Notes: a model not told the origin generated them from the letters alone. A DNA stretch of 64,000 bases from an uncultured Acidobacteriota bacterium (GCA_963828865.1 CAWHGI010000011.1:14263-78262); one strand, 5' to 3'; shown: positions 2,286 to 27,087, counted from the stretch's first letter. Numbers and translations: made by a program.

Positions 2286-2315
2286 TCGCGCGGCCCAAAG
2301 AAAGAGCAATCGAAA

Positions 2316-2516
2316 ATGAACCGAGCGTTCCTCATCATTTTGGTTCCGTTCATTGTAGTCACCATCTTCTGGCTGACGCTGGGATGGGGATGGCACACCG
2401 CGGTAATCGGCGGCTGTCTCAAGATTGCCATCACCGTTGCGGTCGCCATATTTATCTCGCGGCGTCAAGCCGCCCGCTCGCATGCTGGTTCGGGAGACTC
2501 CTCAGCGAGCCGCTAG
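2316..2516 (+). CDS. Small two-helix membrane protein, function unknown
   Basis: 66 aa with two hydrophobic stretches (FLIILVPFIVVTIFWLTLGW, GGCLKIAITVAVAIFI). It sits between queD and queE. I recognise no homology. Confidence 0.4.
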   Translation: MNRAFLIILVPFIVVTIFWLTLGWGWHTAVIGGCLKIAITVAVAIFISRRQAARSHAGSGDSSASR

Positions 2517-2533
2517 CCGGAAGAATTTCTGCC

Positions 2534-3211: not shown

Positions 3212-3222
3212 AGATCTGAAAA

Positions 3223-3924: not shown

Positions 3925-3961
3925 TAGCCGCCGCAATTTTAGCGTTGGAGGAACCACACAC

Positions 3962-5113: not shown

Positions 5114-5249
5114 GCCATTTTCCGGAAGGCAGGCGGCACTTTGAACCAACGGAGCGGCGCCTCACTTTTTTCCACAATATTTATTTTCGCCGTGCTTTCT
5201 TTTCTCGATTCGCGGTTGCAACAGTGCTATTCTCTCGCGCATCATCAGA

Positions 5250-9705: not shown

Positions 9706-12306
9706 ATGAAACGCCGCAAGCGCATGCTCGAAGAGCTCGACCAGGACATTCGCGAACACATCGAACGCGAAACGCAAGACAACATCGCGCGCGGCATGCC
9801 GCCCGACGAAGCGCGTTATGCGGCGCTGCGCAAATTCGGAAATGTCGCCCGCGTCCAGGAAGAAACCCGCGAAGTCTGGGCCAGTCTCTGGTTCGAACAA
9901 CTCCTGCAAGATGTGCGCTACGGATTTCGCCTGTTGCGTCGCAGTCCGCTTTTCGCCCTTGTGGCCATCTTCACTCTCGCCATCGGAATCGGTGCGAACA
10001 CCGCAATCTTCACAGTGGTTCATGCGATCCTGTTGCAGCCGCTTCCTTATCCCAATTCAGACCGCCTCGCCATCATCTGGTCGGGTCTGGGCGACGAGCT
10101 CCGTGCTCCCGCTTCGGAATACGAACTCGTGCAACTCCGCGAGCGCTCCCATCTGTTCGATCAGATCGGCGGAATCTGGGTGCGCAATTCCGTCGTTCCA
10201 GGCGAAGGCCGACCCGAGCAGGTAAAACTCGGCGTGGTGACGGACAATTTCCTTTCGTTGCTCAGCCGGAAGCCGGCCCTCGGCCGCCTGTTTACCCCAC
10301 AAGATGTGCTCGCCGACAAGCAAGACACGATGATCGTTTCCTATGGCCTCTGGCAACGAAGGTTCGGCGGCGATCCCGGCATCATCGGCCGCGCGTTACG
10401 AGTCGGCGACGGCGCCGTAACGATCGTCGGAGTTTTGCCGCAGGATTTCCGCCTGATTTTTCCAGACGACTCCAGCGTCCCGCCGAACGTTGATCTCTTT
10501 ACGCCGCTGGGATTCGCATCCGCCAAGCCGGACGGTCCGAGCTACCTTCGCACCATCGGGCGCCTACGTCCCGGCGCCACTTTCGCGCAAGCACAATCCG
10601 AATTCGATGAAATCACCGCGCAACTTCGCCGCACCGTGCCCGCGTTCGATGATCAGAAACTTTCCCTACACGTAGCGCCATTGCAAGACGATGACGTGCG
10701 CAATGTCCGCCGAACCCTTCTGCTGCTCTTTGGCGGCGTGGCCTTCGTATTGCTGATCGCGTGTGCCAACGTGGCCAACCTGCTCCTCGCGCGCTCGAGC
10801 TATCGCCTGCGCGAAACCACGGTTCGCCTCGCCATAGGCGCGCCGCGCAGCCGCATCATTCGCCAATTGCTTACCGAAAGCATCGTGCTGGGACTCACCG
10901 GCGGAATTGCCGCGATCGGAGTCGGCTGGCTCGCGTTAAAGGCCCTGCTGGCTCTCCGTCCCGAATCGCTATTGCGGCTGGGTTCGATTCAACTAAATCC
11001 AGCAGTGTTCGCCTATACGCTACTGATCTCGCTTGTGACCGGCATCATCTTCGGAATTGCGCCGGCATTGACGGCTAGCCGTGTGGATCTTCGTGACACG
11101 CTCAAAAGCGGCGGACGCGTCGCGGGAACGGGCGGCAAACTATCTCGCGCGGCGCTAATCACCGCTGAAGTTGCGCTCAGTTTCATTCTGCTGGTCGGCA
11201 CAGGCCTGCTCGTGCGCACATTCCTCGCCGTGCTCAATGTGAATCCCGGCTTCCAGCCCGACCACGTGCTCACATTCACAACCTCGCCAGGCGACTACAA
11301 GTTTGTGCACAAGCTGCAGCAAAAATTGCTGACGATTCCCGGCGTGCAATCTGCCTCGATCGTCTCCCATCTGCCGCTGGACGACAGCTACCCCAATTGG
11401 TACGACACCTATTACCCCGAAGGCGCTTCGCCATCAGAACAAAATACTATGCAAGCCGATGATCGTTCGATTCTGCCGGACTATTTCCAAACGATCGGCG
11501 CGACGCTGATCGAAGGGCGCGACTTCACCGACGCGGACGACGCCGCGCATGAGCACGTCGCCATCATTGATGACGCGCTCGCGAAGCAAACCTGGCCCGG
11601 ACAGGAACCGTTGGGCCGCAGACTGAATATCTCCGACTCGCCAAAAGGCTTCTACGAGTTCGAGCGCGACTGGGTGGTAGTCGTCGGCGTGGTCAAGCAC
11701 GTGCAATATCATTCGCTCACAAGGATGGTGCGGCCGCAAATCTACGTTCCGTTTCAGCTGGCGCCTCGCCCGGTGTCCTTTGTGCTGCGCGCCAGCGCTC
11801 CACTCGCCAGTTTGGCCGGACCGATTCGTACGGCGGTCGCCCAAGTGGATAAGAGCGCGCCGGTCGCAAAGCTTATCGCTCTCGATGAACTTGTGAAGCA
11901 AGCGCGCGCGCAAAACCGCTTCGTGGCCTTCCTCGCCGGAGCACTCGCCGCAACCGCGCTGTTCCTTGCGTGCATCGGAATTGCCGGCGTCACCGCGTTT
12001 TCGATCGCGCAACGCACCAGCGAAATCGGTATACGCATGGCGCTAGGCGCTAGCCCGGGCGAAATCCTCCGCATGATTCTCGGTCAAAACCTGCGTCCAG
12101 TAATTGGGGGGCTGCTTGTGGGGTTGTGCGTATCGTTCGCCGTCACGCCCTTGATGGAAACTCTTTTATTTGGCGTCGAGCCCGGCGATCCGCTGACATT
12201 CGTTTCGATCTCGGCGTTCTTGCTCTTGGTGGGAATTCTGGCTTGTTATCTTCCAGCGTTGCGCGCCACGCGAATCGAACCGATCATCGCCCTGCGCTAC
12301 GAATAA
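9706..12306 (+). CDS. ADOP-family duplicated MacB/FtsX-type ABC permease
   Basis: 866 aa. It has the characteristic N-terminus LEELDQDIREHIERETQDNIARGMPPDEARYAALRKFGNV and two MacB_PCD/FtsX halves, which is a hallmark of Acidobacteria. Confidence 0.85.
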   Translation: MKRRKRMLEELDQDIREHIERETQDNIARGMPPDEARYAALRKFGNVARVQEETREVWASLWFEQLLQDVRYGFRLLRRSPLFALVAIFTLAIGIGANTAIFTVVHAILLQPLPYPNSDRLAIIWSGLGDELRAPASEYELVQLRERSHLFDQIGGIWVRNSVVPGEGRPEQVKLGVVTDNFLSLLSRKPALGRLFTPQDVLADKQDTMIVSYGLWQRRFGGDPGIIGRALRVGDGAVTIVGVLPQDFRLIFPDDSSVPPNVDLFTPLGFASAKPDGPSYLRTIGRLRPGATFAQAQSEFDEITAQLRRTVPAFDDQKLSLHVAPLQDDDVRNVRRTLLLLFGGVAFVLLIACANVANLLLARSSYRLRETTVRLAIGAPRSRIIRQLLTESIVLGLTGGIAAIGVGWLALKALLALRPESLLRLGSIQLNPAVFAYTLLISLVTGIIFGIAPALTASRVDLRDTLKSGGRVAGTGGKLSRAALITAEVALSFILLVGTGLLVRTFLAVLNVNPGFQPDHVLTFTTSPGDYKFVHKLQQKLLTIPGVQSASIVSHLPLDDSYPNWYDTYYPEGASPSEQNTMQADDRSILPDYFQTIGATLIEGRDFTDADDAAHEHVAIIDDALAKQTWPGQEPLGRRLNISDSPKGFYEFERDWVVVVGVVKHVQYHSLTRMVRPQIYVPFQLAPRPVSFVLRASAPLASLAGPIRTAVAQVDKSAPVAKLIALDELVKQARAQNRFVAFLAGALAATALFLACIGIAGVTAFSIAQRTSEIGIRMALGASPGEILRMILGQNLRPVIGGLLVGLCVSFAVTPLMETLLFGVEPGDPLTFVSISAFLLLVGILACYLPALRATRIEPIIALRYE

Positions 12307-12315
12307 TTCGCGCCA

Positions 12316-13422
12316 CTACTTTTTCCCGACGACTTCCACTACCGATCTAGCTACGTAGTTGACCTGCTCCGCGGTCATCCCCGGAAAGATCGGAAGACTC
12401 AACACGCGTTCGCACGCGCGTTCCGCGTTTGGAAATGTTCCGGCAGGATAGCCGAGCGAAGAGTAGGCCGGCTGCAGATGGACCGGCTTGGGATAGTGCA
12501 CGGAGGTCTCAATGCCGCGTTCGGCAAGCTGCGCGATCACCGCATTGCGGTTGCTCACGTAAACCACGAACTGGTGGTACACGCATTCGTCGCGTGGATC
12601 GTCCACGGGCATCATGAGCCGTGCTCCTTCCAGCATCCGACGGTATTCGCGCGCGATTTCCCGGCGCCTTTCCGTCCAGCCATGCAATCGGCGAAGCTTG
12701 ATGCGCAGCACAGCGCCCTGGAATCCGTCCATACGATAGTTGTAGCCGGGAAATTCGTGGTCGTAGCGCGCGGTTTGCCCATGCGAACGCGCCGCGCGGG
12801 CGAATTTCGCTACCGCATCGTCGTTTGTCGTCAGCGCCCCAGCCTCTCCGTACGCGCCGAGATTTTTCGTCGGATAAAAACTGAACGCCGCCGCGTGGCC
12901 CAGAGATCCTATACGTTGCTTATGGTAGCGCGCGGCGTGCGCCTGCGCGGCGTCTTCCAAAATCCGCAAATTGCGTCGCGCAGCGATCTCGCGAATCGCG
13001 TCCATATCCGCCGGGCGGCCATATAGATGTACCGGAATGATGGCGCGGCTGCGCGGCGTAATCGCTCGCTCGATCAACTTCGCATCAATATTCGCCGTGG
13101 CCGGATCAATATCCACAAATACGGGACGCGCGCCGCAATACGTAATCGCTTCAGCCGTAGCCAGAAACGTATTCGGCGTAGTGATGACGTCATCGCCCGG
13201 CTGCACTCCCAGCGCCAGCAGCCCCACATGCAGCGCCGCCGTTCCATTGCCCAACGCAACGCAGTGGCATGTCCCGCAGAAATCGGCGAACTCGCGCTCA
13301 AACGCCTCCACTTCCGCGCCCTGCACAAATGAGGAATTCTGGCAGACGCGGTCCAGCGCCGGCAGAATCTCATCACGCAGTTCTGCGTACTCGGCTTTTA
13401 GATCAAGCAGGGGAACTTTCAT
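12316..13422 (-). CDS. DegT/DnrJ/EryC1/StrS-family sugar aminotransferase
   Basis: 368 aa with N-terminus VPLLDLKAEYAELRDEI, plus YGRPADMD and FSFYPTKNLGAYGEAG family motifs. Confidence 0.85.
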   Translation of the reverse strand: MKVPLLDLKAEYAELRDEILPALDRVCQNSSFVQGAEVEAFEREFADFCGTCHCVALGNGTAALHVGLLALGVQPGDDVITTPNTFLATAEAITYCGARPVFVDIDPATANIDAKLIERAITPRSRAIIPVHLYGRPADMDAIREIAARRNLRILEDAAQAHAARYHKQRIGSLGHAAAFSFYPTKNLGAYGEAGALTTNDDAVAKFARAARSHGQTARYDHEFPGYNYRMDGFQGAVLRIKLRRLHGWTERRREIAREYRRMLEGARLMMPVDDPRDECVYHQFVVYVSNRNAVIAQLAERGIETSVHYPKPVHLQPAYSSLGYPAGTFPNAERACERVLSLPIFPGMTAEQVNYVARSVVEVVGKK

Positions 13423-13585
13423 CAGGCGCGCCTTTCAGGACAATGAAAACTCTACTGTACCGCGAGCCGCGCCACAAGCCGTCGGCTCAGCGGCGCTGAG
13501 AACGCTAAGTAGGGGCGCTGCTTGTCGGGGATCCGCCGCAGGAGGGCTGCGCCCCTGGTACGCACGGTTTCCAAAGAATGCGTCG

Positions 13586-14407
13586 CTAGATATGCGTCAG
13601 CGTCCCAGTAATCTTCGTTCGGCGCAGCGCCCAAGAAAACACCACGAACGACGCCGGAATCAAGGTGACCGCGAAGATCAGCAAAGCCGCAATCGAAGGC
13701 CACAATTGATTCCATCCCGCACCCGAAAGCAGCGCCGCGCGCATCCCCTCGAGCGAATACGTCACCGGAATCAATCGCGCCAAAATCCGCAATGGCTCCG
13801 GAAGCACGCTCACCGGATACATCATCCCGCCCACCAGACTCGAAACGCCCAGTACGACCCACTTCGCGGGGTTCCCGCGCTTAAAGAGAATTGTATAACT
13901 GGCCGATAATATTCCTAGTCCTGCAAACGCGAGAATGGAGGCCAGCAGTATCACCACCGCTCCCGCCCAGTTGGCCGCCCGCGGCGCGAACCCGAAAAGC
14001 AGCGCGCCCCACGCGAGATACACGCACGTCCGCAGCGCCAAAGCAGTGAATGGATACACCGCGGAACCCGCGAGGATCACCGGCAGCGGTGTTTGCGTCA
14101 CCAGCAACGCCTCCAGAGTCCGGTTCTGGCGTGCCTCCTCGATGCTCGAATCGAAGGCCGTCATGGATACGCTCAGGTAATCGAAAAATGCGAAGCCAAC
14201 CAGCGCAAACGCGAAGTAGCTTCCTCCCGCAGGCAGCGCCTTCGTTAACTCCGGGCTTTCCACGAAGCGCGATAGGTAATAAAACGTCGCGACGCCGAAT
14301 AGAGCCTCCAGCATTTCCAGCAGAAACGCTCCGCGATACCCGCGAGCAATCGCAAAATCGCGCGCGAAAAATGCCGCAACCTTTCGCAAAGCCCGCACCG
14401 GCTTCAT
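13586..14407 (-). CDS. ABC-2-type transporter permease
   Basis: The start MKPVRALRKVAAFFARDFAIARGYR at 14407 overlaps the upstream ATPase stop as ATGA. The protein has about six hydrophobic segments. Confidence 0.75.
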   Translation of the reverse strand: MKPVRALRKVAAFFARDFAIARGYRGAFLLEMLEALFGVATFYYLSRFVESPELTKALPAGGSYFAFALVGFAFFDYLSVSMTAFDSSIEEARQNRTLEALLVTQTPLPVILAGSAVYPFTALALRTCVYLAWGALLFGFAPRAANWAGAVVILLASILAFAGLGILSASYTILFKRGNPAKWVVLGVSSLVGGMMYPVSVLPEPLRILARLIPVTYSLEGMRAALLSGAGWNQLWPSIAALLIFAVTLIPASFVVFSWALRRTKITGTLTHI

Positions 14408-15219
14408 GGCTGCGCGTCGTCCACTGTCACCCGGTGTCGCGCCAGACGCGTGATCGCGTCCGCGAACGTTGTAGCGCCTGCCTTCGCGCACAGCCCGCGC
14501 GGAGAATCGAACGCGACGACGCGGCCTTCCTCGAGCAGGATCACGCGGTCGGCAATTTCTTCCACTTCGCTAAGAGTGTGCGAAGCAAAGAGCAGTGTCG
14601 TCCCGTGCCGACGAACCAAGTCGTCTTTCAGCAACCGGCGAAAATCCGCAGCTGCCAGCGGATCGAGGCTGCGGGTGGGTTCATCGAGCAACAGAATCGC
14701 AGGCTCGTGCAGCAGCGCGCGGGCGAGCCCCAGACGGTGCGTCATGCCGGTCGAATAAGTCCGCACCTGCCGGTCGAGTTCGGCGCCGATGCCCATCCGT
14801 TCGGCGGCGAGCTTGATGCGGCTGCGCGCCTCGGCGCCGGAAATATTGTTCATGGCTGCAAAGAAAGCCAGATTTTCGCGGCCGCTCAAGCGAGTGTAAA
14901 AACCTTCATCGCCTCCGGTGTGATAGCCAAACTGATAGCGCGCATGTGCCGCCTCGCGCTCGACGTCGCAGCCTCCAATCGCCGCGCGGCCTCGCGTGGG
15001 GATAATCAAGGTAGCAAGCACGCGGAGAAGAGTGGACTTTCCCGCGCCATTCGGCCCAACGATTGCTACCACCTCCGCGGGTTGGACCGAAAAGGAAATT
15101 CCTGCCAGCGCTCGCTCCGTCGGCCGGGAAACCGGCTGCAGCAATGCGCGCCACCCGGTGCGCGCCGGCGGAAAATATTTTTCGAGGGACTCCACCGAAA
15201 TAGCGGGCGCGGGCATCAC
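14404..15219 (-). CDS. ABC transporter ATP-binding protein
   Basis: Walker A GPNGAGKST, signature YSTGMTHRL and Walker B ILLLDEP. Confidence 0.85.
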   Translation of the reverse strand: MMPAPAISVESLEKYFPPARTGWRALLQPVSRPTERALAGISFSVQPAEVVAIVGPNGAGKSTLLRVLATLIIPTRGRAAIGGCDVEREAAHARYQFGYHTGGDEGFYTRLSGRENLAFFAAMNNISGAEARSRIKLAAERMGIGAELDRQVRTYSTGMTHRLGLARALLHEPAILLLDEPTRSLDPLAAADFRRLLKDDLVRRHGTTLLFASHTLSEVEEIADRVILLEEGRVVAFDSPRGLCAKAGATTFADAITRLARHRVTVDDAQP

Positions 15220-15262
15220 GCTGGTTATAACCGAATTCGCCGTAGCGAAGCTAGTTCCACCG

Positions 15263-15291
15263 TTGCTGTTCGCGGCGGGTGCCAGTAGAAT
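15263..15291 (+). promoter_or_regulatory. Candidate sigma70-like promoter for the lasso operon
   Basis: TTGCTG (15263-15268), a 17-nt spacer, then TAGAAT (15286-15291), in the divergent intergenic region. A GGGAG RBS precedes ATG 15398. Confidence 0.3.
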
Positions 15292-15397
15292 AGGGGGCGA
15301 CGACTTGATAAGCGCAGGGCGTGCCTATCCAATCGTACCTCCGCCGTAAGCCAAGGCGGCGGAACAAACCCAGCCCGACACCAAGGGAGCGGCCGCA

Positions 15398-15697
15398 ATG
15401 GACGCACCTCTTTCCTTGCATACGGTTGTAGTCGTATCCGCCGAACAGGTTTCGTGTCCCCTCGGCGAAGAAGCAGCCATTCTGAATCTGAAGAACAGCG
15501 TCTACTACGGCATGAATCCCGTGGGCGCGCGTATTTGGGAGTTGCTCAAGCAGCCCAAGCGCGTCAGCGAATTGCGCGATCTCTTGCTCGACGAATACGA
15601 AGTCGAGCCGGAGCGTTGCTCACAGGACTTACTCGCCTTGCTCCAGAAAATGCGCGAGGAAGGCTTGATCGAAGTAGAGGCTGCGGCGGCTGTGTAG
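15398..15697 (+). CDS. PqqD-family RiPP recognition element (lasso peptide B1 protein)
   Basis: 99 aa with ...GEEAAILNLKNSVYYGMNPVGARIWELL...ELRDLLLDEYEV...DLLALLQKMREEGLI, a typical PqqD/RRE. The reading frame is intact. Confidence 0.8.
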   Translation: MDAPLSLHTVVVVSAEQVSCPLGEEAAILNLKNSVYYGMNPVGARIWELLKQPKRVSELRDLLLDEYEVEPERCSQDLLALLQKMREEGLIEVEAAAAV

Positions 15698-15771
15698 CGA
15701 CACGCGACTTTGTTTCGCGCCGCGGGTTGAAACAACGCAAGTCGCGGCAGGCCCGGAGAAACCAGAGAATC

Positions 15772-16243
15772 ATGATCGAGCGTTTCGCAAGATTTCAGCG
15801 GCTGAGCTCTTTCGAGCGCGGCGTCGTCCTCGAAGCGGCGGGCGGGCTGCTCGCCACCTGGCTCGGTTTGCGCCTCATCGGCTTTCGCCGCTGGGAACGC
15901 GTGCTCGCTGTATTCGCGCCGCCAGAAAACGCAACCGCGCTGGCGCCAGCCGCATCGGAGCAGGAGTCCGCGCTCTCTGATCGCGCGGATGGAAGCGGCG
16001 GCGGCGCGTAATGTTTTGTTCCAGCCGAACTGCCTCGAGCAGTCGCTCGTGCTCTGGTGGCTGCTGCGCCGGCGCGGCATCGCCGCGGACCTGCGCATCG
16101 GCGCGCGCAAGGATTCCGACCGCTTCGAAGCGCACGCTTGGGTGGAATTTGGCTCTCAGGTTCTGAACGATGCGGGCGCCGAGCATCGCCATTTCATTCC
16201 GTTCGAGAAGCCCATCCTTTCCATGGAGGCGCGCATCGAGTGA
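15772..16243 (+). pseudogene. Lasso peptide B2 leader peptidase (transglutaminase-like Cys protease), one frame change
   Basis: The N-terminal part MIERFARFQRLSSFERGVVLEAAGGLLATWLGLRL is in frame 1 and stops at 16011. The catalytic part ARMEAAAARNVLFQPNCLEQSL...EAHAWVEFGSQVLND (Cys/His/Asp) is in frame 2. The junction lies near the ctctct run at about 15972-15980. Confidence 0.75.
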
Positions 16244-17957
16244 GCGGCATCGTCGGCATGTACGAACGCAGTGGCGCGCCGGTAGATCGCACGCTGTTGC
16301 AGGCCCTCGCTCATTTTCTTTCCTACTGCGGTCCGGACGCGCGCGACACCTGGTCTCACGGCCCGTCGGCTTGGGCCACACGATGTTCCGCACCACGCGC
16401 GCTTCGCAATTCGAACGCCAGCCCGCCAGCCTCGCCGGTCGGCTTTGGATTACAGCCGACGCCAGAATTGACTGCCGAGACGAGCTCCTGGGCAAGCTGA
16501 CCGAGCGCGAGGGCGGCAAGCTCTCCGGCCCCATCGCCACCGATTCCGATTTGATTTTGCGTTCCTACGCCGTCTGGGGCGCCGACTGCGTCCAGCATCT
16601 GCGCGGGGATTTTGCCTTCGCCATCTGGGACGCGCAGCAAAAGCTTCTTTTCTGCGCGCGCGACCATTTTGGAATCAAGCCATTCTATTATTCCGAATTG
16701 GGAGAGCTGTTTCTCTTCAGCAACGTGCTCGATTGCCTGCGCCAGCATCCCGAACTCTCCTCGGACCTAAACGACGCAGCCATCGGCGACTTCCTCCTGT
16801 TCGGTCTGAATTGCGACGTCGCCACCACCACGTTCCGCGATATTCGCCGCTTGCCGCCGGCGCACTGCATGACGGTATCTTCCGACGACTTGCGCATCCA
16901 GCGCTACTGGTCCGCGCCCACCGAAGGCCGCATCCGCTATCAGCGCGCCGAAGATTACGTCGAGCATTTCCAGATTCTCCTGCAAGCCGCAGTCGCCGAC
17001 CGCATGGCCGCCGATCGCACCGGGATTTTGCTGAGTGGCGGCCTAGATTCCGGCACGGTCGCAGCCACCGCCCGCGAACTTTCCACCCGTCCCGGCAGCC
17101 CCAAAGATTTGCGCGCCTACACCGTGGTCTACGACTCGCTGTTCCACGACGAAGAAGGCGCCTACGCCCAGCGAAACCGCCGACTTCCTCAAGATTCCCA
17201 TCCGCTTCATCCCCATGGATCACGTCCAACCCTTCGAACGCTGGGACGATCCGTGCGTCAGCATTCCCGAGCCGGTAGATGACCCGTGCTTCGCCGGCCT
17301 CTTCGACCAATTTCAAGCCATCGCCACAGATTGCCGCGTGGTGCTTTCCGGCGAAGGCAACGACAGCCTCATGCACTTTCAGATGATGCCGTACATGAAA
17401 GACATGATGCGCAATCGCGAATGGCAAAAGCTTCCTGGCGGAAACTTCGCGGTACATCTGGCTGCGGCCTTCCGCCCTGCCTGGAGTGTGGCGTAGGATT
17501 AAGGGACTTTTAGGAACGACGGCGCCACTCCGCAATTTCCGCGCTGGTTGGCGCCAGACTTCACGCGCCGATTGGGTTTGCAAGACGCGCGTAAGAGAAT
17601 GGAACCAGCTCGTCCCTGGTTCTCCGTCTCACCCTGTCCTGCCCGGAGGCGTACGCCTCGCTCTCGCCGTCCTACTGGTCCCACATGTTCGAACTCGAAA
17701 ATCCCGGCGTCTCGCGCTACCCAGTGGAGGTTCGTCATCCATTCTTCGATCTGCGCATCGTCAATTACTTGCTCGCGCTCCCGCCTTTTCCTTTGTTTTT
17801 CGAGAAGAAGCTGCTCCGCGAGGCAGTTGCAGGCCGCCTGCCCGAGAAAATTCGCACCCGCCGCAAGAGTCCCCTGGCTGGAGATCCGCTGGTCGCGCAC
17901 GTCGGGCAGCGGCAGACGCCCTGGATCGAGCAGCTCGCATGGGCCGACAGAGATTAG
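16240..17957 (+). pseudogene. Lasso peptide lactam synthetase (asparagine-synthetase-like C protein), about 6 frame changes
   Basis: GTG 16240 overlaps the B2 stop as GTGA. Homologous segments read in frames 1,3,1,2,1,2,3: VSGIVGMYERSG...TWSHGP / VGLGHTMF...ILLSGGLDSG...GAYAQ / ETADFLKIPIRFIP...SGEGNDS / WLRPSALPGVWRRIKGLLG / DGATPQFPRWLAPDFTRRLGL / REWNQLVPGSPSHPVLP / EAYASLSPSYWSHMFE...VEVRHPFFDLRIV. Switches are at about 16362, 17170, 17455, 17515, 17590 and 17648. Confidence 0.8.
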
Positions 17958-18054
17958 CTCGTACGTTGACAAGTCCGCATTGACGCTGTTCGAAAACGAA
18001 ACGCTTCCGGCGAAGATGGACACCGACGTTCGCCCTCTTTGCCTCAACTTTTGG

Positions 18055-18084
18055 TTGCAGTCAGCGCGCAGAGTCCGGTATAAC
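18055..18084 (+). promoter_or_regulatory. Possible dedicated promoter for the precursor gene
   Basis: TTGCAG (18055-18060), an 18-nt spacer, then TATAAC (18079-18084), about 20 nt upstream of ATG 18104. Confidence 0.25.
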
Positions 18085-18103
18085 TTGCGTGCGGAGGTTC
18101 GCA

Positions 18104-18247
18104 ATGCTTAAGCCCGTAAAACGGGTGAAGAAGCCCTATTCATCTCCTATCATAACGATGTACGGTACGGTTCAGGAGTTGACGCAAAACAAAATGGGTA
18201 GCAGGGGCAACGACGGCGCCAAGAAGCCTAAGAACCGCAGCGGCTAG
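18104..18247 (+). CDS. Candidate lasso-peptide precursor (47 aa; not in the ORF track)
   Basis: MLKPVKRVKKPYSSPIITMYGTVQELTQNKMGSRGNDGAKKPKNRSG. A GGAGG RBS sits 6 nt upstream, and there is an alternative GTG start at 18125 (VKKPY...). The leader fits YxxPx(L/I)xxxGxxxxxTx exactly. The predicted core is NKMGSRGNDGAKKPKNRSG with Asp at position 9. Confidence 0.6.
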   Translation: MLKPVKRVKKPYSSPIITMYGTVQELTQNKMGSRGNDGAKKPKNRSG

Positions 18248-18359
18248 TGCCGACGTTCGCCCGCAATCGCGGGAATCGGAGTCACCTGCAAGCAAACGAG
18301 CCCGTCGCATGAGTTGCCGGAAACGTCCGGCCCTAACTGAAAATTCTCGCGAATTCGAG

Positions 18360-18382
18360 ATGCGGCTCAGGGCGCATTTTTT
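18360..18382 (+). terminator. Weak hairpin plus T-run between the precursor and kinase genes
   Basis: ATGCG (18360-64) pairs with CGCAT (18373-77) around an 8-nt loop, followed by TTTTTT. The stem is only 5 bp, so this is at best an attenuator. Confidence 0.25.
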
Positions 18383-18402
18383 CACGACGTGGACTGCATC
18401 CT

Positions 18403-19411
18403 TTGACTGAATGCCGCTTCACCTACTTCGTTTTCGGTCTCACCCTCCGTTCGAATGGGCCAATCCCTGAGTTATCGCTGACAACCCGCGCCGACGCTGT
18501 CGCCGACGTGCACGTCCACCTGAATCTTTCTCCCCTCGGAACCCGCATCCTCCCTTCCGATCCAGAGACGCTCACCTATACCAGTCCTTACCAAGATGAA
18601 TCCGGCAATTCCATGCTCCGAATCTGGAGTATCGCTGGTGGCAAATTCTGCCGGCTGGATTACGCCGACGGAACGCAATTCTGGCTGGACCGCGATGGAA
18701 CGGAAGTCTGGGCTACTTGGCGCGAAAATTCGACGATCGAAGATACGGCGACTTATCTATTGGGTCCCGTTCTCGGCCGGTTACTGCGCCTCCGCGGCGT
18801 GACCTGCCTGCATGCCAGCGCGGTGGCCTTCGGCGAACAAGCCGTCGCGATCGTCGGGCCCGCGGGCGCTGGAAAATCGACCACTGCAGCGGCGTTGGCG
18901 CTGCGCGGCCACGCGATTCTCTCCGACGACGTGGTCGCGCTCGCCGAGCGTGATCGGTCGTTCTATGTTCACTCCGCGTACCCTTATCTCTGTCTCTGGC
19001 CCGAGTCGGTGCGATCATCTACGGTTCGGCCGACGCTTTGCCGCAACTCAGCGCTAATTACGACAAACGCTGCTTGTCGCTCGGAAATCAGGAATTGCGG
19101 TTCGCGGAACGTCCCATGCAACTCACTGCGATCTATGTCTTGGGCGAGCGCCGCGGCGATCCTGCTCCTACAATCGAAGACCTTTCTCCGCAGCAAGCGT
19201 TTCTTTCGCTGTCTGGCCAACACCTTCGGGATGAACGTCGTGGATGGCAGCATGCGCGCCAAGGAATTCGAGATGCTCGGGCGCCTGCGTCCCGGCTGTG
19301 CGTATCCGTCAGATCTGGCCGCACGAAGACCCCAACCGCCTGCCCGAGCTGTGCCAACGAATTTGCGATGATGTCCAGGCAATAAGCTCGCGAAAACCGG
19401 CGCTCGCCTGA
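18403..19411 (+). pseudogene. HPr-kinase-like (HprK C-terminal domain) lasso-associated kinase, about 3 frame changes
   Basis: TTG start. The P-loop is VAIVGPAGAGKSTTAAALALRGHAILSDD. Segments read in frames 1,3,1,2: ...YLCLWPES / GAIIYGSADALPQLSANYDKRCLSLGNQELRF...QQAFLSL / VANTFGMNVVDGSMRAKEFEMLGRL / VRIRQIWPHEDPNRLPELCQRICDDV. Switches are at about 19008, 19210 and 19290. Confidence 0.7.
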
Positions 19412-19698
19412 TCGAATCCGCCGCATTTACGCCTATCCCACTGAGAGTGGCTCTTTGAATACCGCGTGGTGGAATATTTGGCCCTCTTCGGTTTGGCCGC
19501 CATTTACAGCTATGCTACTATCCCCGTTCAAATGGCGTGTCCGAACCCCATTAAACGGCGCTGGTGTCTGAGCCGGTGGGATAAACCGTCTTCAACAGCT
19601 CAATTTTCATACTCGTGTCTCGATTCCGACGCCACCAAACTCCCTTTTCACTCGCGGTATATCAGGCTTCAGAAATACAGAACATGAGGAGAACCTCC

Positions 19699-22600
19699 AT
19701 GCAGAAGAAATCCCCGCTGGGCAAGTTTGCAGCTTTTGTCGCGGTAGCATTGGTCATTTCCACTTTATTTATATTTGTCATGATCCACCATGGGCGCAGC
19801 GCGGCGCGCGCAGTCTCGTCGCAGTCGGCTGGCGCGGCCGCAACGAAGGCCGTGCCGGCAAACTTCGACTGGACCAAGTACGGCCAGCTTCCTCTCGAGT
19901 TTGAGGCCAATCAAGGCCAGACGGCCCCGGACGTTCGCTTCCTTTCACACGGTGACGGTTACACGCTGTTCCTCACCGGAGACGAAGCCGTCATGACCTT
20001 GCGACAACCCGCACCTGGTTCTGATTCGCGGCTTGGCCGCGCGAAATTCGGCAAAGGCCTCGCCACTCGCGGCTCTGCGGTAAAAGTCTCCGTTCTGCGC
20101 ATGCAGCTCGACGGCGCGAATCCGAACGCGACCGTGTCTGGCGTTGACCGCATGCCCACAAAAGTGAATTACTTCATCAGCAACGACCCGAAGAAGTGGC
20201 ACACCAACGTCCCGGCCTACTCCCAGGTGAAATACCAGGGCATCTATCCGGGCGTGGACCTGCTTTTCTACGGCAACCAGCGCCGCCTCGAATACGATTT
20301 CGTTGTTTCCCCTGGAGCCAATGCGAACCAGATCGCCCTCGATGTCAAAGGTGCGGACAAATTGCAACTCGATCAGAATGGCAACCTGCTGATGAGCGTG
20401 CGGGGCGGCAAAGTCGAGTTGCAGAAGCCGATTATTTATCAGGACGTGAATGGCCAACGCTGCGAGATCGCGGGAAACTACGCCATCACGAATAATCACG
20501 AAGTCCGCTTTGCAGTCTCGGACTATGACTACAACCGGCCACTCACGATCGACCCGGTTTTGAATTACGTCACCTACCTCGGTGGCACGGGGACCGACAC
20601 CGCTTTGGGAATCGCCTTGGATGCGGCGGGAGACGCCTATGTCGCTGGTGTAACTACATCAGCCACGGATTTTCCGACGATGAATCCCGAATCACCAGCG
20701 CCCGGCGACACTGCCTCATTGGGCACCGCATTTATTTCCGAGCTGAACCCCGGAGGCAGCGCGCTCATTTATTCCACATACCTCGGAGGCAGCGGCAATG
20801 GACTGCCAGCCGGAATGGGCGGCATAGGAGATTTGGCTACCGCCATCGCCGTGGACACAGCAACCCCGCCGAATATCTATGTGACCGGCTTTACAGGTTC
20901 TCCGGATTTTCCGGTGAGCACGAACGCCCTGATTGGAAGGCCTGGACCGGGCGGGACGAGCACCGGTGGGTCGGCTTCATAACCAAACTCACTCCATCCC
21001 TGATAGGGACCGCCCAACTTGCTTACTCCACCTATCTGGGTGGCAACACGGAAGACGAGGGAAATGGCATTGCGGTTGATGCCAGTGGCGACGCTTTCGT
21101 CACGGGACTAACGCTATCCACCGATTTCCCGACGACGACAAACGCATACTCTCAAACGGCTCTCAATCCGACGAATGGAGGCGCTTTTCTGACGGAAATC
21201 AATACCGTCACGGGCACGGACGTATATTCGACTTACTTCGGAGGAACAAACGGCGCAGGAAGCATTTACTTGTTCGGTGATGAGGCGTTTGGAATCACCG
21301 TGGACACTAGCTCGAACGCTTACATCGTGGGTACGACTACTTCGGCCGACTTTCCAACGGCCGGACACACCATCAGCTCCTGTACGACCGACACAGCCGG
21401 AATCGCGTTCGTTTCGGTGATTAACACCACCACTCCCGCGCTGACTTATCTCAACCTGTTTGGGCGGCGCGACTACCGAAACCCAGGGTCAGGCCATCAC
21501 GCTGGGCCCTGCGGGGATCGCTTACGTCACGGGTCAAACGACCTCGACAGATTTTCCGGTAACCGCGAATTCCATTCCGGCTCCGGCGGGCTTCGGCGCA
21601 GGCAACGGCGTGGTATTCGTCTCGCTCCTGAACACCACCAGCACCACGCCGAATCAGTATTCGACCCTGTTGGGCGGGAACAACGGCGACATCGGCCTAT
21701 GGCATCGCCGCCGATTCCACGGGCAATGCGTACGTTGGTGGCTCTACGGGCTCAGCCGATTTTCCGCTCACATCTGGCGCGCTGATTCAGTCCAGGAATA
21801 ACGCGTTTGGCACAGGCTTCGTTTCAAAGATCAATCCTGGCGGAAACGGACAGGCCGACTTGCTTTACTCCAGTTACTTTGGAGGCAACGGAGTCGGCGG
21901 TACATTCGACGCGGCTTATGGCGATCGGACGTTTCCGGCACGAACGCGTAATCACCGGTCAAACGGCCTCTTCCGATTTGCCGGTGACCAGCGGCGCATA
22001 TCCAGTCACGCTCAAGAGTACGACGCACGAACGCGTTTGTCGCCGATTTGCCTCTGGTTCCAACGATCTCCGTCTCCCCGACCAGCCTTCCTTTCGGAAC
22101 GCAACTGGTCGGCGACAACAACCGCCCGCGATGTTCGTCACGCTCACGAACAACACGTGATCGGCGATCACGCTGACGATTCCGGCCACAATCAGCGGGA
22201 CGAATCCCGCGGATTTCGCGGAGTCTGCTGGCACTTGCGTGGCCTCGCTGCCTGCAGCAGCCAGCTGCACGATCGGCGCCACGTTCACGCCTGCTGCGGC
22301 TCAAGCGTATATCCGCGACGCTGAAAATCGCGTACACCTTCAGCGGCATCACAGGCACCACGTCTTCAGGTCCCGCTCACTGGAACGGGCAGCACGACCA
22401 TCGCTGCAATCGGCTTCAGCCCCTCCAGCCTCACGTTCGCCGGCCAGCTCCTCACCACCACGAGCGCCGGACAAACCCTCACAGTCAGCAACCCGAGCAC
22501 CGCTAATGCGCTCACGATCACTGCGATCACCGCCAGCACCGACTACACCATCGCCTCGAATTCCTGCGGCGCGGTGCCAATCACCATCGCTGAGTCGCCA

Positions 22601-23222
22601 GGCGGGACGCCCTGCATGTTGAGCATCACATTCAATCCCAGCGCCACCAGCGCGCCAGGTGCGGACAACGGCACGATCATGTTCACCGACAACGCCAATG
22701 GCAGCCCGCAATCGTTCACGCTGAACGGCACCGCCTGGGACTTCTCGGTCACGGCCGGCAGTGCAAGCGTCGCCAAGGGTGCCATGGGCACTTTCCCCGT
22801 GACCATCACCGGACTCGGCGGATTCACCGGCATGGTCTCTTTCACGTGCACGCCCGGCAGCACGCTAGTTACCGCGTGCGCCGTGCCGACTACCAGCGCG
22901 GCGGCCGCACCCGGAGCCATGGTCAACGGAACGCTCACGGCGGCTTCCTTCGTCGTCGCCGCCGGAGTCCATGAAGGTTCCGCCCACAGCCACGCCGCAA
23001 CAGCTGCTCCTCGTGATGCTGGCGATCGCTCTGCTGTTCATGATCCCCGCAACACGACGCTTCCGCACTCGCATGGGGATGGCTGGAGCGATGCTAGTGT
23101 TTATCATGGTGGCAGGCTGCAGCGGAAACGGCCCGAAGCCCAAGACCACAACGCTGACAGTTACACCGTCGTCCGGTGGCGTCACCAAGCCGGCCATCAC
23201 GGTGAACGTCACCATCACATAG
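19699..23222 (+). pseudogene. Large secreted SBBP-repeat (beta-propeller) and choice-of-anchor-D/HYDIN-like surface protein, about 10 frame changes plus one in-frame TGA
   Basis: Signal/anchor MQKKSPLGKFAAFVAVALVISTLF and LPLEFEANQGQTAPDVRFLSHGDGYTLFLT. There are repeated YSTYLGG...G.AVD..G.AYV.G.T.S.DFP units, then SLPFGTQLVG...VTLTNNT...ADFAESAGTC...SCTIGATFTP modules, and a C-terminal TM segment LLLVMLAIALLFMIP. The frame order is 1,3,1,2,1,3,1,3,1,2,3, with a TGA at 22158-22160 inside VTLTNNT*SAITL. Confidence 0.7.
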
Positions 23223-23247
23223 CGAGAATCGTTCTCCAACAAACTCG

Positions 23248-23293
23248 GGCCGCGCGTTCTGGTCTTCCAGGCCGCGCGGCCTTTATTCTTTCT
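23248..23293 (+). terminator. Rho-independent terminator
   Basis: GGCCGCGCG (23248-56) pairs with CGCGCGGCC (23273-81), followed by TTTATTCTTTCT, 26 nt after the stop at 23222. Confidence 0.55.
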
Positions 23294-23541
23294 ACTCGCA
23301 ATCTCAGCTGACTCGCGCAATGTTTTCGATTTTTTGCCAATTATTCGGTCCGCGAGAGATTTGCCCAACCACCCGAACCTTCACGAAATCGAAGTTTTTC
23401 GCCCGGCACACTACCCATAACCCGCCTTTCCATCTATTCTAAGTGCCGCCGCGCGCCAACGAATTACGGGCTATCTCGCATCTGAAACACTCGCGGAACG
23501 AAGCACTCTAAAACCACCACATTCACTGGAGGATGCGGTTG

Positions 23542-24193
23542 ATGAAAAAAGTAGCGGGGATTCTGTTGTTGACGGCGCTTTTCTGTGGCCACGCCATGGC
23601 CCAGGAAAATTCGATGTTCAAGCCGAATCTCTCGAAGCTCAAGCCTCGCAAGCCTGAGCGCGCGAAATTTGAACTCGGTGCCGGATACACCTATCGCTCG
23701 TTCCTGGAGCCTTCCCCTCATCCGCCCAATCTAAGCAACCGGCTGAACATGAATGGATTCAACGTCCATGGCGAATACCGCATCTTCCGCTGGCTCAGCG
23801 CCGCCGGCGATATTTCCGGCGCATATAACATCAGCTCGATCAACGGCAACACCCAGATGTACACGTTGATGTTCGGTCCCGAATTCTATCCTCTCGGCCA
23901 CCGTCACAAAATCACTCCTTTTGGTCACTGTACTCTTTGGCGAGGGCTTTTCCGTTTACAATCTCGCAAGCCAGGGCGGCTTTGCCTCGGTGAGTCATTG
24001 GGATAACGGTTACCTCTGGATGGCTGGCGGCGGCCTCGACGTCCGCTTCAAAAAGCGCTGGGCCATTCGCCTGATTGATGCCGATTACGAGATCACGCAT
24101 TTTGGCAACGTCGGCACCGGAAGCTACGGTGGGACCAGCCAGGGAAATTATCGCATCTCGGTCGGCTTGATCTACCGCTTCGGCGTGAAGTAG
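23542..24193 (+). pseudogene. Outer-membrane beta-barrel protein (OmpA-like/porin family), one frame change
   Basis: MKKVAGILLLTALFCGHAMAQ signal with GGAGG 9 nt upstream. The N-terminal part runs to ...HRHKITPFGH. It continues in another frame as VLFGEGFSVYNLA...GNYRISVGLIYRFGVK, which ends in a terminal aromatic-rich strand. The switch is at about 23925-23932. Confidence 0.6.
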
Positions 24194-24329: not shown

Positions 24330-25628
24330 GTGGAGCAAACCATTGGCGAAGGCCGCTCGCGGCTGTTGATTTTGCCGGTGGCTCTCGCGTGCGGCACTTT
24401 CCTGTGCTATCAAGCCGCGCGGCTCTGGCTCGCCGACCATCGCATTCATTCCAGCAAACTCGAAGTCATCGAGAATGGCGCGGCGCTCGAGCCCGGCGAC
24501 GCCGAAGCCTGGGACATCCTGGGCCGCCATCGCCAGCTCGATTTCGCCAATGCCGATCCTGTCCAAGCTCTCGCGAATTATCAGCACGCGATCCATGACG
24601 ATCCGCTTTCTGCGAACTACTGGATGAATCTTGCGGGCGCCTACGAGGCGAATGACGATCTGAAAGGCGCGCAAGAAGCATTTGAACACGCCCGCGCCGT
24701 CTATCCGCTCTCCGCGGAAGTCGCCTGGAACTACGGCAATTTTCTGCTGCGCCAAGATCAGGACGCCGCCGGTTATGCCCAAATCCGCCACGCAGTTCAA
24801 TCCGACCCGTCGTTTCTCACTCTCGCGATTTCGCGGGTGTGGCGCTCCAGCCACGACGTGAATATTCTGCTCGACCAAGTCCTGCCCGCGAATGCCGACG
24901 CCTATTTTCAAGCGATCAATTTCTTCGCCTCCATTCGCCAGCCCGACCCAGCGCTAATCGTTTGGCGCCGCTTCGTCGCTCTTGGGAAACCGTTCGCGCT
25001 CCCGCGCGTGTTTCCTTTTCTTGACGAACTGATCGTGGCTGACCGGTCCAGCGACGCAGCCCGCGTATGGGTCGAGGCCCTCACCGCGGGAGGTCTGCCC
25101 CACGACCCACCCTTGAAGCACTCGCTCATCTGGAATGGTGATTTTGCCCACGATTTTGAAAATGGCGGGCTCGGATGGCGATGGAACGCACCGGTCGGTG
25201 CCGCGATCGATTTTGACACCCCTCCTCCTTCTGCAGGGGTCCGCTCGGTGCGCCTGGATTTCGGCGGAGGCAGCAACCTGGAAATCACGGAGCCGCTGCA
25301 GTTCGTGGCCGTCGAACCCGCTCGCAAATATCATTTCCACGCCTATATGGAGACCGAAGGAATCTCCACCGAAAGCGGCATGCGTCTCTCGATTAGCGAC
25401 CCCAATCACAACGCCGTGGTGAACCTGTTGACCGAAAATCTGACGGGTTCGCACAAATGGACCGCGATTGACTTGGACCTGACGACGGGACCGGATACTC
25501 ATTTCCTTGTGGTGCACCTCTACCGCACTGCCAGCCGCTTATTTGAAAATAAGCTGAGCGGCACGGTCTGGCTCGCCGACGTTACGTTGATTCCCGCTGA
25601 CGCCCAGCCGGGGAACGCTCCGCAATGA
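24330..25628 (+). CDS. TPR-repeat membrane-anchored protein with a C-terminal beta-rich (carbohydrate-binding-like) domain
   Basis: GTG start and an N-terminal TM segment LLILPVALACGTFLCY. TPR-like repeats follow (AEAWDILG..., ANYWMNLAGAYEANDDLKGAQEAFEHA...). The stop overlaps the next gene (ATGA). Confidence 0.55.
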   Translation: MEQTIGEGRSRLLILPVALACGTFLCYQAARLWLADHRIHSSKLEVIENGAALEPGDAEAWDILGRHRQLDFANADPVQALANYQHAIHDDPLSANYWMNLAGAYEANDDLKGAQEAFEHARAVYPLSAEVAWNYGNFLLRQDQDAAGYAQIRHAVQSDPSFLTLAISRVWRSSHDVNILLDQVLPANADAYFQAINFFASIRQPDPALIVWRRFVALGKPFALPRVFPFLDELIVADRSSDAARVWVEALTAGGLPHDPPLKHSLIWNGDFAHDFENGGLGWRWNAPVGAAIDFDTPPPSAGVRSVRLDFGGGSNLEITEPLQFVAVEPARKYHFHAYMETEGISTESGMRLSISDPNHNAVVNLLTENLTGSHKWTAIDLDLTTGPDTHFLVVHLYRTASRLFENKLSGTVWLADVTLIPADAQPGNAPQ

Positions 25629-26920
25629 ATTTCATTCGCGCCGGACTCTTGCTCTTGTTTGCGTTTGCCGTGCTGGCGTTCGGCGCCGTGGAAGTGTGGT
25701 CCGCGTCGCTTCTGGAAATAGGAGCCGGCATTTTATTCGTCGGCTGGGCCGCGATTGTTTATCTCGATCCCGCCGCAAAAATCGAATGGAATCCTTTGAA
25801 CTGGCCCCTCGCCGGCTTTATCGCCATCGGCCTGATTCAACTGGCGTTCCACCTCACACCCTATCCGTTCCTCACTCGCGTCGAATTGCTGAAGCTGGCC
25901 GCCTACTTCCTGATCTTTTTTCTCTCGACACAAGCCTTTCGCCAGCGCGGCGATCTCACGAATCTCGCGTGGTTTCTCATTTTTCTTTGTTTCTTCGTCT
26001 CGCTGCTCGGAATTATTCAGCACTTCACCACCGAAACGAAGCTGTACGGATTCCGCGCCCTCAGTGAAGGTGGCGATCCCTTTGGTCCATTCGTAAATCG
26101 CAACGATTTCGCGGGCTTCGTCGAGCTCACGCTCCCCGCCGGTCTGGCGCTGATGATTTTCCGCGGTTTGCGCGGCGACATGTTTCCGCTCGCCGGCCTG
26201 CTCACCATCGTTCCCACGGGCGCCATGGTTCTCTCCGGCTCGCGCGGCGGCATCGTCAGCTTCGGCTTTGAGATCGCGGTGCTCGCGTTGCTGGCGCGGT
26301 CGCGGAAAGGTCCGCACGGCCCGCGGCTCGCGGCACTCGCCATCGTAGGATTGGCTGCTCTGGCTCTGGTGATATGGCTCGGCGCTGGCAAAGCTCTCGA
26401 ACGCTTTTCCACTTTGCATTCTGGCGACGTTTCGCTTTCCCGCCGCGCCACCATGGTTCACGGCGCCGCCCACATGTTCTTCGACCATCCCGTCGCCGGC
26501 ACCGGCGTTGGGTCGCTGGTAGCCGTCTATCCGCGGTACGAAACCCTATACGACGGCAAAGTTGTGGACCACGTCCACAACGACTACATGGAAATGCTCG
26601 CGGAAACCGGAATTCTGGGCGCATTCTGCGGCCTCGTATTTCTCTGGCTCTTGTTCCGCCATGCGCGCAACTGCTTTGCGGCGGAGCAGGGCCATTTCTC
26701 GCGCGCCATTCACGCCGGAGCAATCGCCGCGCTCTGTGGGCTGCTGCTGCACAGCCTGGTGGACTTCAACCTGCACATTCCATCTAACGCGCTGCTGTTT
26801 CTGTTGCAAGCGCATCTCGCCACCACCACCCCATTGCCGTCCGAAGGAGCCCCCACGCGCCGACGGACGCGCGCGCCCGACCGCGATATCGGCGACGAAA
26901 GGGAGCACGCCCTTCCGTAA
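25625..26920 (+). CDS. O-antigen ligase/polymerase family (Wzy_C domain) membrane protein
   Basis: 431 aa and polytopic, with a Wzy_C-type periplasmic loop motif ...GVGSLVAVYPRYE...DHVHNDYMEMLAETGILG. Confidence 0.8.
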   Translation: MNFIRAGLLLLFAFAVLAFGAVEVWSASLLEIGAGILFVGWAAIVYLDPAAKIEWNPLNWPLAGFIAIGLIQLAFHLTPYPFLTRVELLKLAAYFLIFFLSTQAFRQRGDLTNLAWFLIFLCFFVSLLGIIQHFTTETKLYGFRALSEGGDPFGPFVNRNDFAGFVELTLPAGLALMIFRGLRGDMFPLAGLLTIVPTGAMVLSGSRGGIVSFGFEIAVLALLARSRKGPHGPRLAALAIVGLAALALVIWLGAGKALERFSTLHSGDVSLSRRATMVHGAAHMFFDHPVAGTGVGSLVAVYPRYETLYDGKVVDHVHNDYMEMLAETGILGAFCGLVFLWLLFRHARNCFAAEQGHFSRAIHAGAIAALCGLLLHSLVDFNLHIPSNALLFLLQAHLATTTPLPSEGAPTRRRTRAPDRDIGDEREHALP

Positions 26921-27087
26921 GTGGTCGTGCCCCTTGCATAACTGTCTTGCCGTACCCGCACAACTCTTGGGAACTTTCAGAGATCGTTAATTTGTTTGGG
27001 CGTCATAGGTGCGTTGGCAAGTTGGTCTTCGCTGGTTGACAGCGGTACTCAGGGTAAGGGATAGTCTTTCTGGGGTTTTCTATCGCT

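Follow-up and report, generated by a model that had tools for sequence, protein, structure and literature searches.

Does a locus in which all the parts of a lasso-peptide pathway stand side by side, and in which three of the five biosynthetic genes are broken as assembled, represent a genuine lasso-peptide cluster, and if so, of what kind? We addressed this question for positions 13586-19411 of a stretch of 64,000 nucleotides (hereafter the window) from an uncultured Acidobacteriota bacterium (GCA_963828865.1 CAWHGI010000011.1:14263-78262). An open reading frame (ORF) listing and a three-frame translation were used to place the genes, and revealed a lasso operon in the order B1-B2-C-A-K next to a divergent ABC-2 exporter pair. 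As stable scaffolds, lasso peptides can act as antibiotics and bind receptors, and the chemistry of Acidobacteria, which are abundant in soil, is almost untapped. We hold with good confidence that this locus is a genuine lasso-peptide cluster of a family that is widespread in soil Acidobacteriota (Candidatus (Ca.) Acidiferrales/Acidoferrum) and has a divergent two-component ABC-2 exporter. It is best described as a variant among the kinase-tailored lasso clusters, from a large uncharacterised acidobacterial family.

Lasso biosynthesis genes and their conservation

A preliminary description of this DNA, made from the sequence alone, had reported the adjacency of all lasso parts in the order B1-B2-C-A-K, and every part and every motif that it quoted was found where it had placed them. 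The analysis that it had named beforehand as a possible refutation, a hidden Markov model search with the frame-corrected proteins, returned matches to lasso models for B1, B2, C and the precursor. The models were run on frame-corrected sequences, and C and K were tested as the 86-94% identical orthologues from L006, the closest relative with a near-intact cluster. B1 matched the Pfam PqqD model with 72.4 bits (cut-off 23.4, E 4e-20), and its best NCBIfam matches were the lasso PqqD chaperone models (lasso_PqqD_Bac, E 1.1e-19); a protein identical to B1 is encoded on 4 further contigs in the same context. Frame-corrected B2, whose two frames meet at residues 68/69, scored 88.4 bits against the NCBIfam model NF033537 (lasso_biosyn_B2, cut-off 33). 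Its motifs NCLEQS, EAHAWVE and LND were read in the window, and 59 of 62 homologues retain those with Cys and His; the count for the catalytic Asp (35/62) was obtained with a poorly chosen regular expression and was not used.

For C, the best NCBIfam model was that of the lasso isopeptide cyclase, NF033535, with 371 bits, compared with only 232 bits for the Asn synthase model; the former score lies below the 525-bit cut-off of NF033535, which is a cyanobacterial 'exception' model. The PP-loop LLSGGLDSG was read in the window, and SGGxDS is present in 73 of 77 homologues. The N-terminus of C is xSGIVG and not xCGI, from which it follows that the enzyme lacks the glutaminase Cys, an absence that is usual among lasso cyclases. 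Ungapped tblastn pieces span residues 1-622 of the orthologue in alternating frames without an in-frame stop. A first list of homologues, which held only C proteins of at most 470 aa, suggested a naturally split or recoded C, but this was ruled out because 63 of 73 related genome loci encode a C of ~620 aa in one uninterrupted frame (by record-name class, 38/45 long-read and 25/28 short-read loci).

One genome per species was scanned with a K profile, which yielded 200 confirmed relatives; the 80 best loci were retained. As far as their contigs reach, ~70 species-level Acidobacteriota genomes have the order B1-B2-C-A-K, and a precursor ORF was found at the same place in all 69 homologous loci from which one was recovered. 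The recurrence of the same gene order and sizes in ~70 independent genomes means that the cluster is not the product of chance. The acidobacterial context that had been noticed from the sequence was borne out, as the genomes carrying K loci are nearly all Acidobacteriota metagenome-assembled genomes (MAGs) of Ca. Acidiferrales/Acidoferrum, many of them from the Microflora Danica project. Some single MAGs contain two or three paralogous B1-B2-C-A-K clusters with different cores (L010+L013; L017+L024+L034; L018+L023; L014+L027), and such paralogues could add to long-read consensus errors. Further K loci come from MAGs with the labels Dormiibacterota, Verrucomicrobiia and Binatus (L052, L073, L076, L083) and from one labelled Heliobacteriaceae (L078), which has two tandem cyclase genes (3738-5555, 5905-7734) upstream of K; inter-phylum transfer and mis-binning are both possible for the loci under other phylum labels.

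Among the 70 loci with sufficient upstream sequence, 46 have the exporter pair on the strand opposite to B1 and ~180 bp upstream of it, and the length of the spacer between the exporter and B1 is conserved (~175-195 bp across loci). Its recurrence at this position indicates that the divergent ABC-2 pair is part of the cluster in this clade. D1 aligned to its 273-aa orthologue of L006 end to end without gaps or frame change (96% identity), and the Pfam ABC2_membrane domain was found on the D1 gene of L001, L005 and L006. D2 matched an NCBIfam drrA-like model (E 5.5e-57) and aligned without gaps to its orthologue at 92% identity. Lasso clusters are usually described with a single D gene, whereas the window has a two-component ABC-2 pair. 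Scans for regulatory elements gave negative results: a consensus scan of 13400-19800 for sigma-70 promoters and intrinsic terminators gave no more hits than shuffled sequence, a consensus scan of the divergent spacer (15220-15397) found no sigma-70-like site, folding of the spacer between A and K (18240-18410) gave a z of -0.24 and no sign of a structured attenuator, and an Rfam scan of 12000-24000 gave no match.

The architecture has a published counterpart. BGC 44.1 is a biosynthetic gene cluster (BGC) from a forest-soil metagenome that was assigned to Acidobacteriia by BLAST (Negri et al. 2022, PMC9064862). The order and sizes of its genes (D1 822 bp, D2 810, B1 303, B2 471, C 1863, A 150; PMC9064862, Table 2) agree with those of the window, a match by architecture and sizes and not by sequence. 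In BGC 44.1, D1 and D2 are translationally coupled and stand outside the co-oriented A/B1/B2/C block; a downstream kinase was neither listed nor cloned (PMC9064862). The preliminary description had regarded both the position of the precursor after the cyclase and the two-component exporter as unusual. Both features are present, but an acidobacterial cluster from soil had already been reported with the C-then-A order and the two-component exporter (PMC9064862), which makes them less remarkable than that description supposed. The features of the locus are collected in Table 1.

Table 1. Genes and intergenic region of the lasso locus, in window coordinates
Feature	Position	Strand	Remarks
D1, ABC-2 type permease	13586..14407	(-)	~273 aa, intact
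D2, ABC transporter ATPase	14404..15219	(-)	~270 aa, intact; 4-nt overlap with D1
Divergent intergenic region between exporter and biosynthetic operons	15220..15397	.	178 bp; promoters presumed
B1, PqqD-like recognition element for peptides made on ribosomes and modified after translation (RiPPs)	15398..15697	(+)	99 aa, intact
B2, transglutaminase-like leader peptidase	15772..16243	(+)	156 aa corrected; one +1 frameshift at ~15976-15978
C, Asn-synthetase-like lasso cyclase	16240..18111	(+)	~622 aa corrected; 7 frame changes
A, precursor, predicted leader MLKPVKRVKKPYSSPIITMYGTVQELTQ and core NKMGSRGNDGAKKPKNRSG	18104..18247	(+)	47 aa; read directly from sequence
K, HprK-like P-loop kinase	18403..19411	(+)	~335 aa corrected; 3 frame changes

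The precursor peptide and the downstream kinase

The start codon of A overlaps the stop codon of C (ATGCTTAA), with GGAGG located 8 nt upstream, which suggests that the translation of A is coupled to that of C; in most loci, the start of the small ORF lies 4 nt ahead of the end of the last sense codon of C. Among NCBIfam models, the 47-aa peptide matched those of lasso precursors only. The model lasso_cyano matched 35/35 precursors and lasso_leader_L3 matched 31/35, with the scores of the window's own precursor just under the cut-offs. Where the sources name these precursors, they are called 'hypothetical protein'. The sequence of the peptide is strongly conserved: an identical 47-aa precursor is encoded in the intact clusters of L089 and L092, it is the same across lineages that are 15-18% apart in DNA, and the comparison of A with L006 showed 10 synonymous and 0 non-synonymous differences. 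One precursor variant occurs on 227 contigs. Two loci (L040, 7625-7870; L071, ~7587-7850) carry longer precursors of 81 and 86 aa, in which the region of the leader motif is tandemly doubled before one core.

The following statistics rest on the 69 recovered precursors. All of them contain Tyr-x-x-Pro-x-(Leu/Ile/Val/Phe), then nine residues and Thr-x, and all have an Asp exactly nine residues past the predicted boundary. In the window, the leader positions Tyr(-17), Pro(-14), Ile(-12) and Thr(-2) correspond to Y12, P15, I17 and T27, a spacing that has been used for defining lasso leader/core boundaries (PMC10368454), and the Asp at core position 9 is D37. The boundary is thus predicted after Gln28, which would give a leader of M1-Q28, a core of 19 aa (NKMGSRGNDGAKKPKNRSG) and a ring between Asn1 and Asp9. 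At core position 1, the precursors carry T (17), K (17), H (8), S (7), A (7), N (4), R (4), Q (3), M (1) or G (1). Characterised lasso peptides start almost always with Gly, Ala, Ser or Cys; this usual small residue is absent from the window, which has Asn1. Asn at this position was first shown in 2025, in metanodin (PMC12670498).

The other end of the core is also conserved. A Ser or Thr is present among the last four residues of all 69 precursors, and that column is at least 90% Thr. This Thr, which is a Ser in the window, is the only conserved hydroxyl residue of the core; it is preceded by Lys or Arg in 52 precursors and followed by two residues in 50. In L078, an acidic core (NTTMSKDMDDNPGMGGSDKTG) still ends in Lys-Thr-Gly. 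The window core ends in NRSG, and only 2 of the 69 relatives have a C-terminal Ser. At core position 3, the window has Met and 52 precursors have Gly, and not the Ser3 of the Bsf type; position -2 of the leader is Thr in all 69, and not the Ile(-2) of the Bsf type.

K stands directly downstream of A in all 80 loci, and among 8,000 database candidates that were scored, 4,893 relatives were found at E <= 0.001. The P-loop GPAGAGKST was read in the window, and ungapped tblastn pieces span residues 1-334 of the orthologue. None of the residues His137, Lys158, Asp175 and Asp176 varies among 17 diverse homologues, and the His-Lys-Asp-Asp motifs were found in 79-80 of the 80 loci as well as in the first K segment of the window; these residues were defined in lasso kinases, in which mutagenesis showed them to be essential (PMC9266682). 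Using the translation of the bsfK gene sequence printed in PMC10368454, we found 30% identity between K (335 aa) and BsfK (340 aa) over 181 residues (E 9e-11), and BsfK itself matches Hpr_kinase_C in the same short region as K. A profile search of the sequences in PDB placed HPrK/P on top, with a similarity of ~50 residues around the P-loop. The AlphaFold model of K (predicted local distance difference test, pLDDT, 76; predicted template modelling score, pTM, 0.72) gave Foldseek matches to PEP carboxykinase (PEPCK) and HPrK/P, two P-loop kinase folds that are related to each other. K appears to have the P-loop region and overall fold in common with both. However, K differs from HPrK/P in having its own beta-rich N-terminal domain of ~110 residues and a context without a link to HPr or the phosphotransferase system, and it did not give a full-length match to HPrK/P proper (TIGR00679; 18 bits, cut-off 240). 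These comparisons and the structural model point to a kinase of the HprK/PEPCK fold and of the lasso-kinase type.

The preliminary description had drawn a parallel to the paeninodin type, in which HprK-like kinases phosphorylate a C-terminal Ser; the sequence of the precursor corrects this parallel. As the precursor ends in Gly and not in Ser, the cluster belongs to the lasso family at large and not strictly to the paeninodin type. Because C-terminal Ser and Ser3 are both inapplicable here, the sub-terminal Ser/Thr is the best candidate for the acceptor of K, and the likely acceptor, judged from the pattern of conservation, is Ser18 in the window and the Thr of Lys/Arg-Thr in its relatives.

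Frameshifts and competing explanations

Several findings speak against interpreting the locus as a genuine and kinase-tailored lasso cluster. In its assembled form, the window does not allow B2, C or K to be made, and the breaks are packed into 8 kb with none in more than 8 kb of tested flank, a distribution unlike that of uniform sequencing error. No product of the family has been detected, and BGC 44.1, the matching cluster, gave no peptide when it was cloned without K and expressed in E. coli and Burkholderia (PMC9064862). Metanodin is the one experimental precedent for Asn at ring position 1 (PMC12670498). In addition, K scores under the curated cut-offs of Pfam Hpr_kinase_C (20-28 bits, cut-off 33.3) and NCBIfam HprK_rel_A (34 bits, cut-off 200), and its acceptor residue is a candidate chosen by conservation.

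The frame changes were mapped by ungapped tblastn with the proteins of L006. There are 11 in the cluster, of which those in C lie at ~16365, 17172, 17480, 17505, 17590, 17645 and 17949, those in K at ~19017, 19212 and 19285, and the single one in B2 corresponds to one extra T in the window relative to L001 and L002. The preliminary description had hinted at these breaks, in that it spoke of frame-corrected translations, without giving their number; the identities hold, and B2, C and K have 1, 7 and 3 frame changes, respectively. The downstream 1163-aa DUF7948/SBBP gene has ~10 further frame changes and the next gene (216 aa) has 1. Altogether, ~22 frame changes in five genes fall within one island of 8 kb (15976-23946), and none was found in the MacB-like gene, DegT, both ABC genes and the TPR gene of the flanks (9706-15219, 24330-25628).

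Comparison with related assemblies argues that the island is variable among strains. The flanks of L001, a sister assembly, are 99.6-100% identical to the window, whereas its island is 68-97% identical with many indels. Across B1, B2 and the first half of C, L001 and the window differ by 33 synonymous and 10 non-synonymous changes; the resulting ratio of non-synonymous to synonymous proportions (pN/pS) of 0.10 indicates that the substitutions reflect genuine alleles on which selection acts. The two assemblies differ in where their frameshifts lie. In its second half, the C of L001 is a different allele, with its best match in L012; recombination was considered as the cause of the frameshifts and rejected, as this allele switch accounts for the substitutions and not for the indels. 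In three assemblies that are 99.1-99.4% mutually identical, C is broken 0, 1 and at least 2 times. A short-read contig that is 97.6% identical to the window (L002) is free of the indels at 15978 and 16365, and L089, a short-read assembly, and L092 have fully intact clusters with the identical precursor. The Microflora Danica MAGs among the related records are presumably long-read assemblies. Relative to L006, the five cluster genes have a ratio of non-synonymous to synonymous substitution rates (dN/dS) of 0.12 (dS 0.50), which indicates strong purifying selection, and their 3.7 kb contain no in-frame stop; the DegT control gave 0.037.

We therefore weighed two explanations of the breaks. The one that we favour, as the more probable, is that the 11 frameshifts are errors in the consensus of a metagenome assembly from long reads, within an island that varies among strains and whose consensus is poor through low or mixed coverage. 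The other is real decay, in which the 11 frameshifts and the ~11 in the two downstream genes are genuine and the strain no longer makes the peptide. Accessory biosynthetic clusters are frequently lost, L001 and L005 are likewise broken in the same island with intact flanks, and a split C also occurs in two short-read MAGs (L053 and L068). Decay is, however, difficult to reconcile with corrected frames that lack nonsense codons and have a dN/dS of 0.12, with a precursor that is 100% conserved despite its 10 synonymous changes, and with a number of breaks that varies among near-identical assemblies. It likewise leaves unexplained why selection is evident in the pN/pS of 0.10 against a near-identical sister assembly whose frameshifts nevertheless differ in position, and dozens of independent indels with zero divergence of the flanks are biologically hard to explain. 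Because the breaks are clustered as they are, with five clean genes around them, real inactivation keeps an appreciable though minor probability.

A further alternative concerns the function of K. K might not tailor the peptide at all but be an HprK-like ATPase with another role, such as regulation or a scaffold function like that proposed for ScmC-like proteins, and the peptide would then be an unmodified class II lasso. The scores under the curated cut-offs, the restriction of the HPrK/P similarity to ~50 residues around the P-loop and the absence of both known acceptor positions (C-terminal Ser and Ser3) from the precursor would fit this view. We consider it improbable, since the four residues that are essential by mutagenesis in lasso kinases (PMC9266682) are invariant, the homology to the validated BsfK extends over 181 residues in proteins of equal length that share the same short Hpr_kinase_C region, K is immediately downstream of A in every locus, and even cores as divergent as that of L078 retain a hydroxyl residue after Lys or Arg near the C-terminus. 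Least probable, and in our judgement quite unlikely, is a leader/core boundary elsewhere, for example at the conserved Gly that occupies predicted position 3 in 52/69 precursors and position 1 in 1/69, which would yield a canonical Gly1-Asp7 ring and a first residue like the Gly, Ala, Ser or Cys of nearly all characterised lasso peptides (PMC12670498), because the Tyr(-17)/Pro(-14)/Leu(-12)/Thr(-2) spacing (rule: PMC10368454) fits solely after Gln28 in 69/69 precursors, the sub-clade of the window has its Gly at position 4 and would require an unprecedented 6-residue ring, and Asn1 has been demonstrated experimentally in metanodin (PMC12670498).

Other observations concern the surroundings of the cluster. 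Directly downstream of K, 19699-23219 (+) holds the fragments of the large DUF7948/SBBP beta-propeller repeat protein (1163-1166 aa), the gene of which is intact at the same position in L006, L089, L091 and L092. In the gap between DegT and the permease (~13478-13562), L001 (6195-8163) holds ~1.9 kb of extra sequence with called genes of 89 and 372 aa and no Pfam match, an indel polymorphism between otherwise identical strains. Further away, the window contains a radical SAM gene followed by QueC (7-cyano-7-deazaguanine synthase) at 2246-3924, an intact 911-aa ORF with no Pfam match at E <= 1e-5 at 5250-7985 (+), and, downstream of the island, a polysaccharide locus at 24330-28152 (TPR protein, Wzy_C O-antigen ligase-like protein, Poly_export/SLBB). 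A search for a second lasso cluster elsewhere in the window found none.

Relation to characterised systems and significance

Lasso clusters with an associated kinase are known from Firmicutes and Proteobacteria (paeninodin, ThcoK, SyanK, pseudomycoidin, BsfK), and lasso precursors have already been predicted from Acidobacteriaceae (PMC9266682, PMC10368454). Like the window, the paeninodin type (PadeK, ThcoK, SyanK, PsmK) combines split B1/B2, C and an HPr-kinase-like kinase with His-Lys-Asp-Asp, and its kinases act on the linear precursor (PMC9266682). However, paeninodin-type precursors end in the acceptor Ser whereas that of the window ends in Gly, and the window belongs to another phylum, Acidobacteriota; for the kinase motif, the comparison with this type draws on reviews. 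In Bradymonas sediminis, BsfB1 and BsfB2 of the bsf cluster (Duan et al. 2023, PMC10368454) align to B1 and B2 at 28% each, and the precursor of that cluster shares the YxxPxL leader motif with the family of the window. The target of BsfK is Ser3 in a Gly1-Asp8 ring behind a leader with Ile(-2), whereas the window has Met3, Thr(-2) and a predicted Asn1-Asp9 ring. Metanodin (Negri et al. 2025, PMC12670498) resembles the window in its soil-metagenome origin and in Asn as residue 1, which in the window follows a leader with Thr(-2), but it is encoded by a gammaproteobacterial, non-split A-B-C cluster of an unrelated lineage, and the main text of its report makes no mention of a kinase. Relative to the characterised systems, the new elements are the recognition of a conserved downstream kinase, a residue 1 other than Gly and a candidate acceptor that is neither C-terminal Ser nor Ser3; neither the position of the precursor behind the cyclase nor the two-component exporter is new (PMC9064862).

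The pathway that we propose from these data would begin with the translation of A in coupling with C, from the ATG over the C stop and the GGAGG upstream of it. B1 would bind the leader via Tyr(-17)-x-x-Pro(-14)-x-Ile(-12). K would phosphorylate the linear precursor, most likely at Ser18 in the Arg-Ser-Gly end, the sole conserved hydroxyl position of the core. B2, as a Cys-His-Asp peptidase, would then cleave after Gln(-1), two residues beyond Thr(-2), and C would adenylate Asp9 and join it to the alpha-amine of Asn1. The predicted product is a 9-residue macrolactam with a cationic tail of 10 residues, and the ABC-2 pair may serve in its export or in immunity. The gene identities, motifs, synteny and precursor pattern behind this scheme are observations, whereas its cleavage site, ring, acceptor residue and exporter role are predictions.

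In a wider sense, the locus is an example of how a strain-variable island in a long-read metagenome assembly may mimic a pseudogene cluster. For specialists, the cluster itself would be no surprise, but the variety of residues at position 1 within the family and the sub-terminal acceptor can be tested and are of use. We tentatively suggest, as a possibility that we would not yet favour, that these clusters form a very large, uncharacterised acidobacterial clade of tailored lasso peptides that departs from two working rules of the field: nearly any residue (Thr, Lys, His, Asn, Arg, Gln) could stand at position 1 of an invariant 9-residue ring closed on Asp9, and K would act on an internal, sub-terminal Lys/Arg-Thr(Ser) and not on the C-terminal Ser or Ser3. 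If the K step is needed before processing, this would explain the failure of the expression of BGC 44.1, which was cloned without K. If the predicted features are true, this family would be under-called by mining rules that favour a Gly at core position 1, and the downstream kinase would belong in attempts at its expression.

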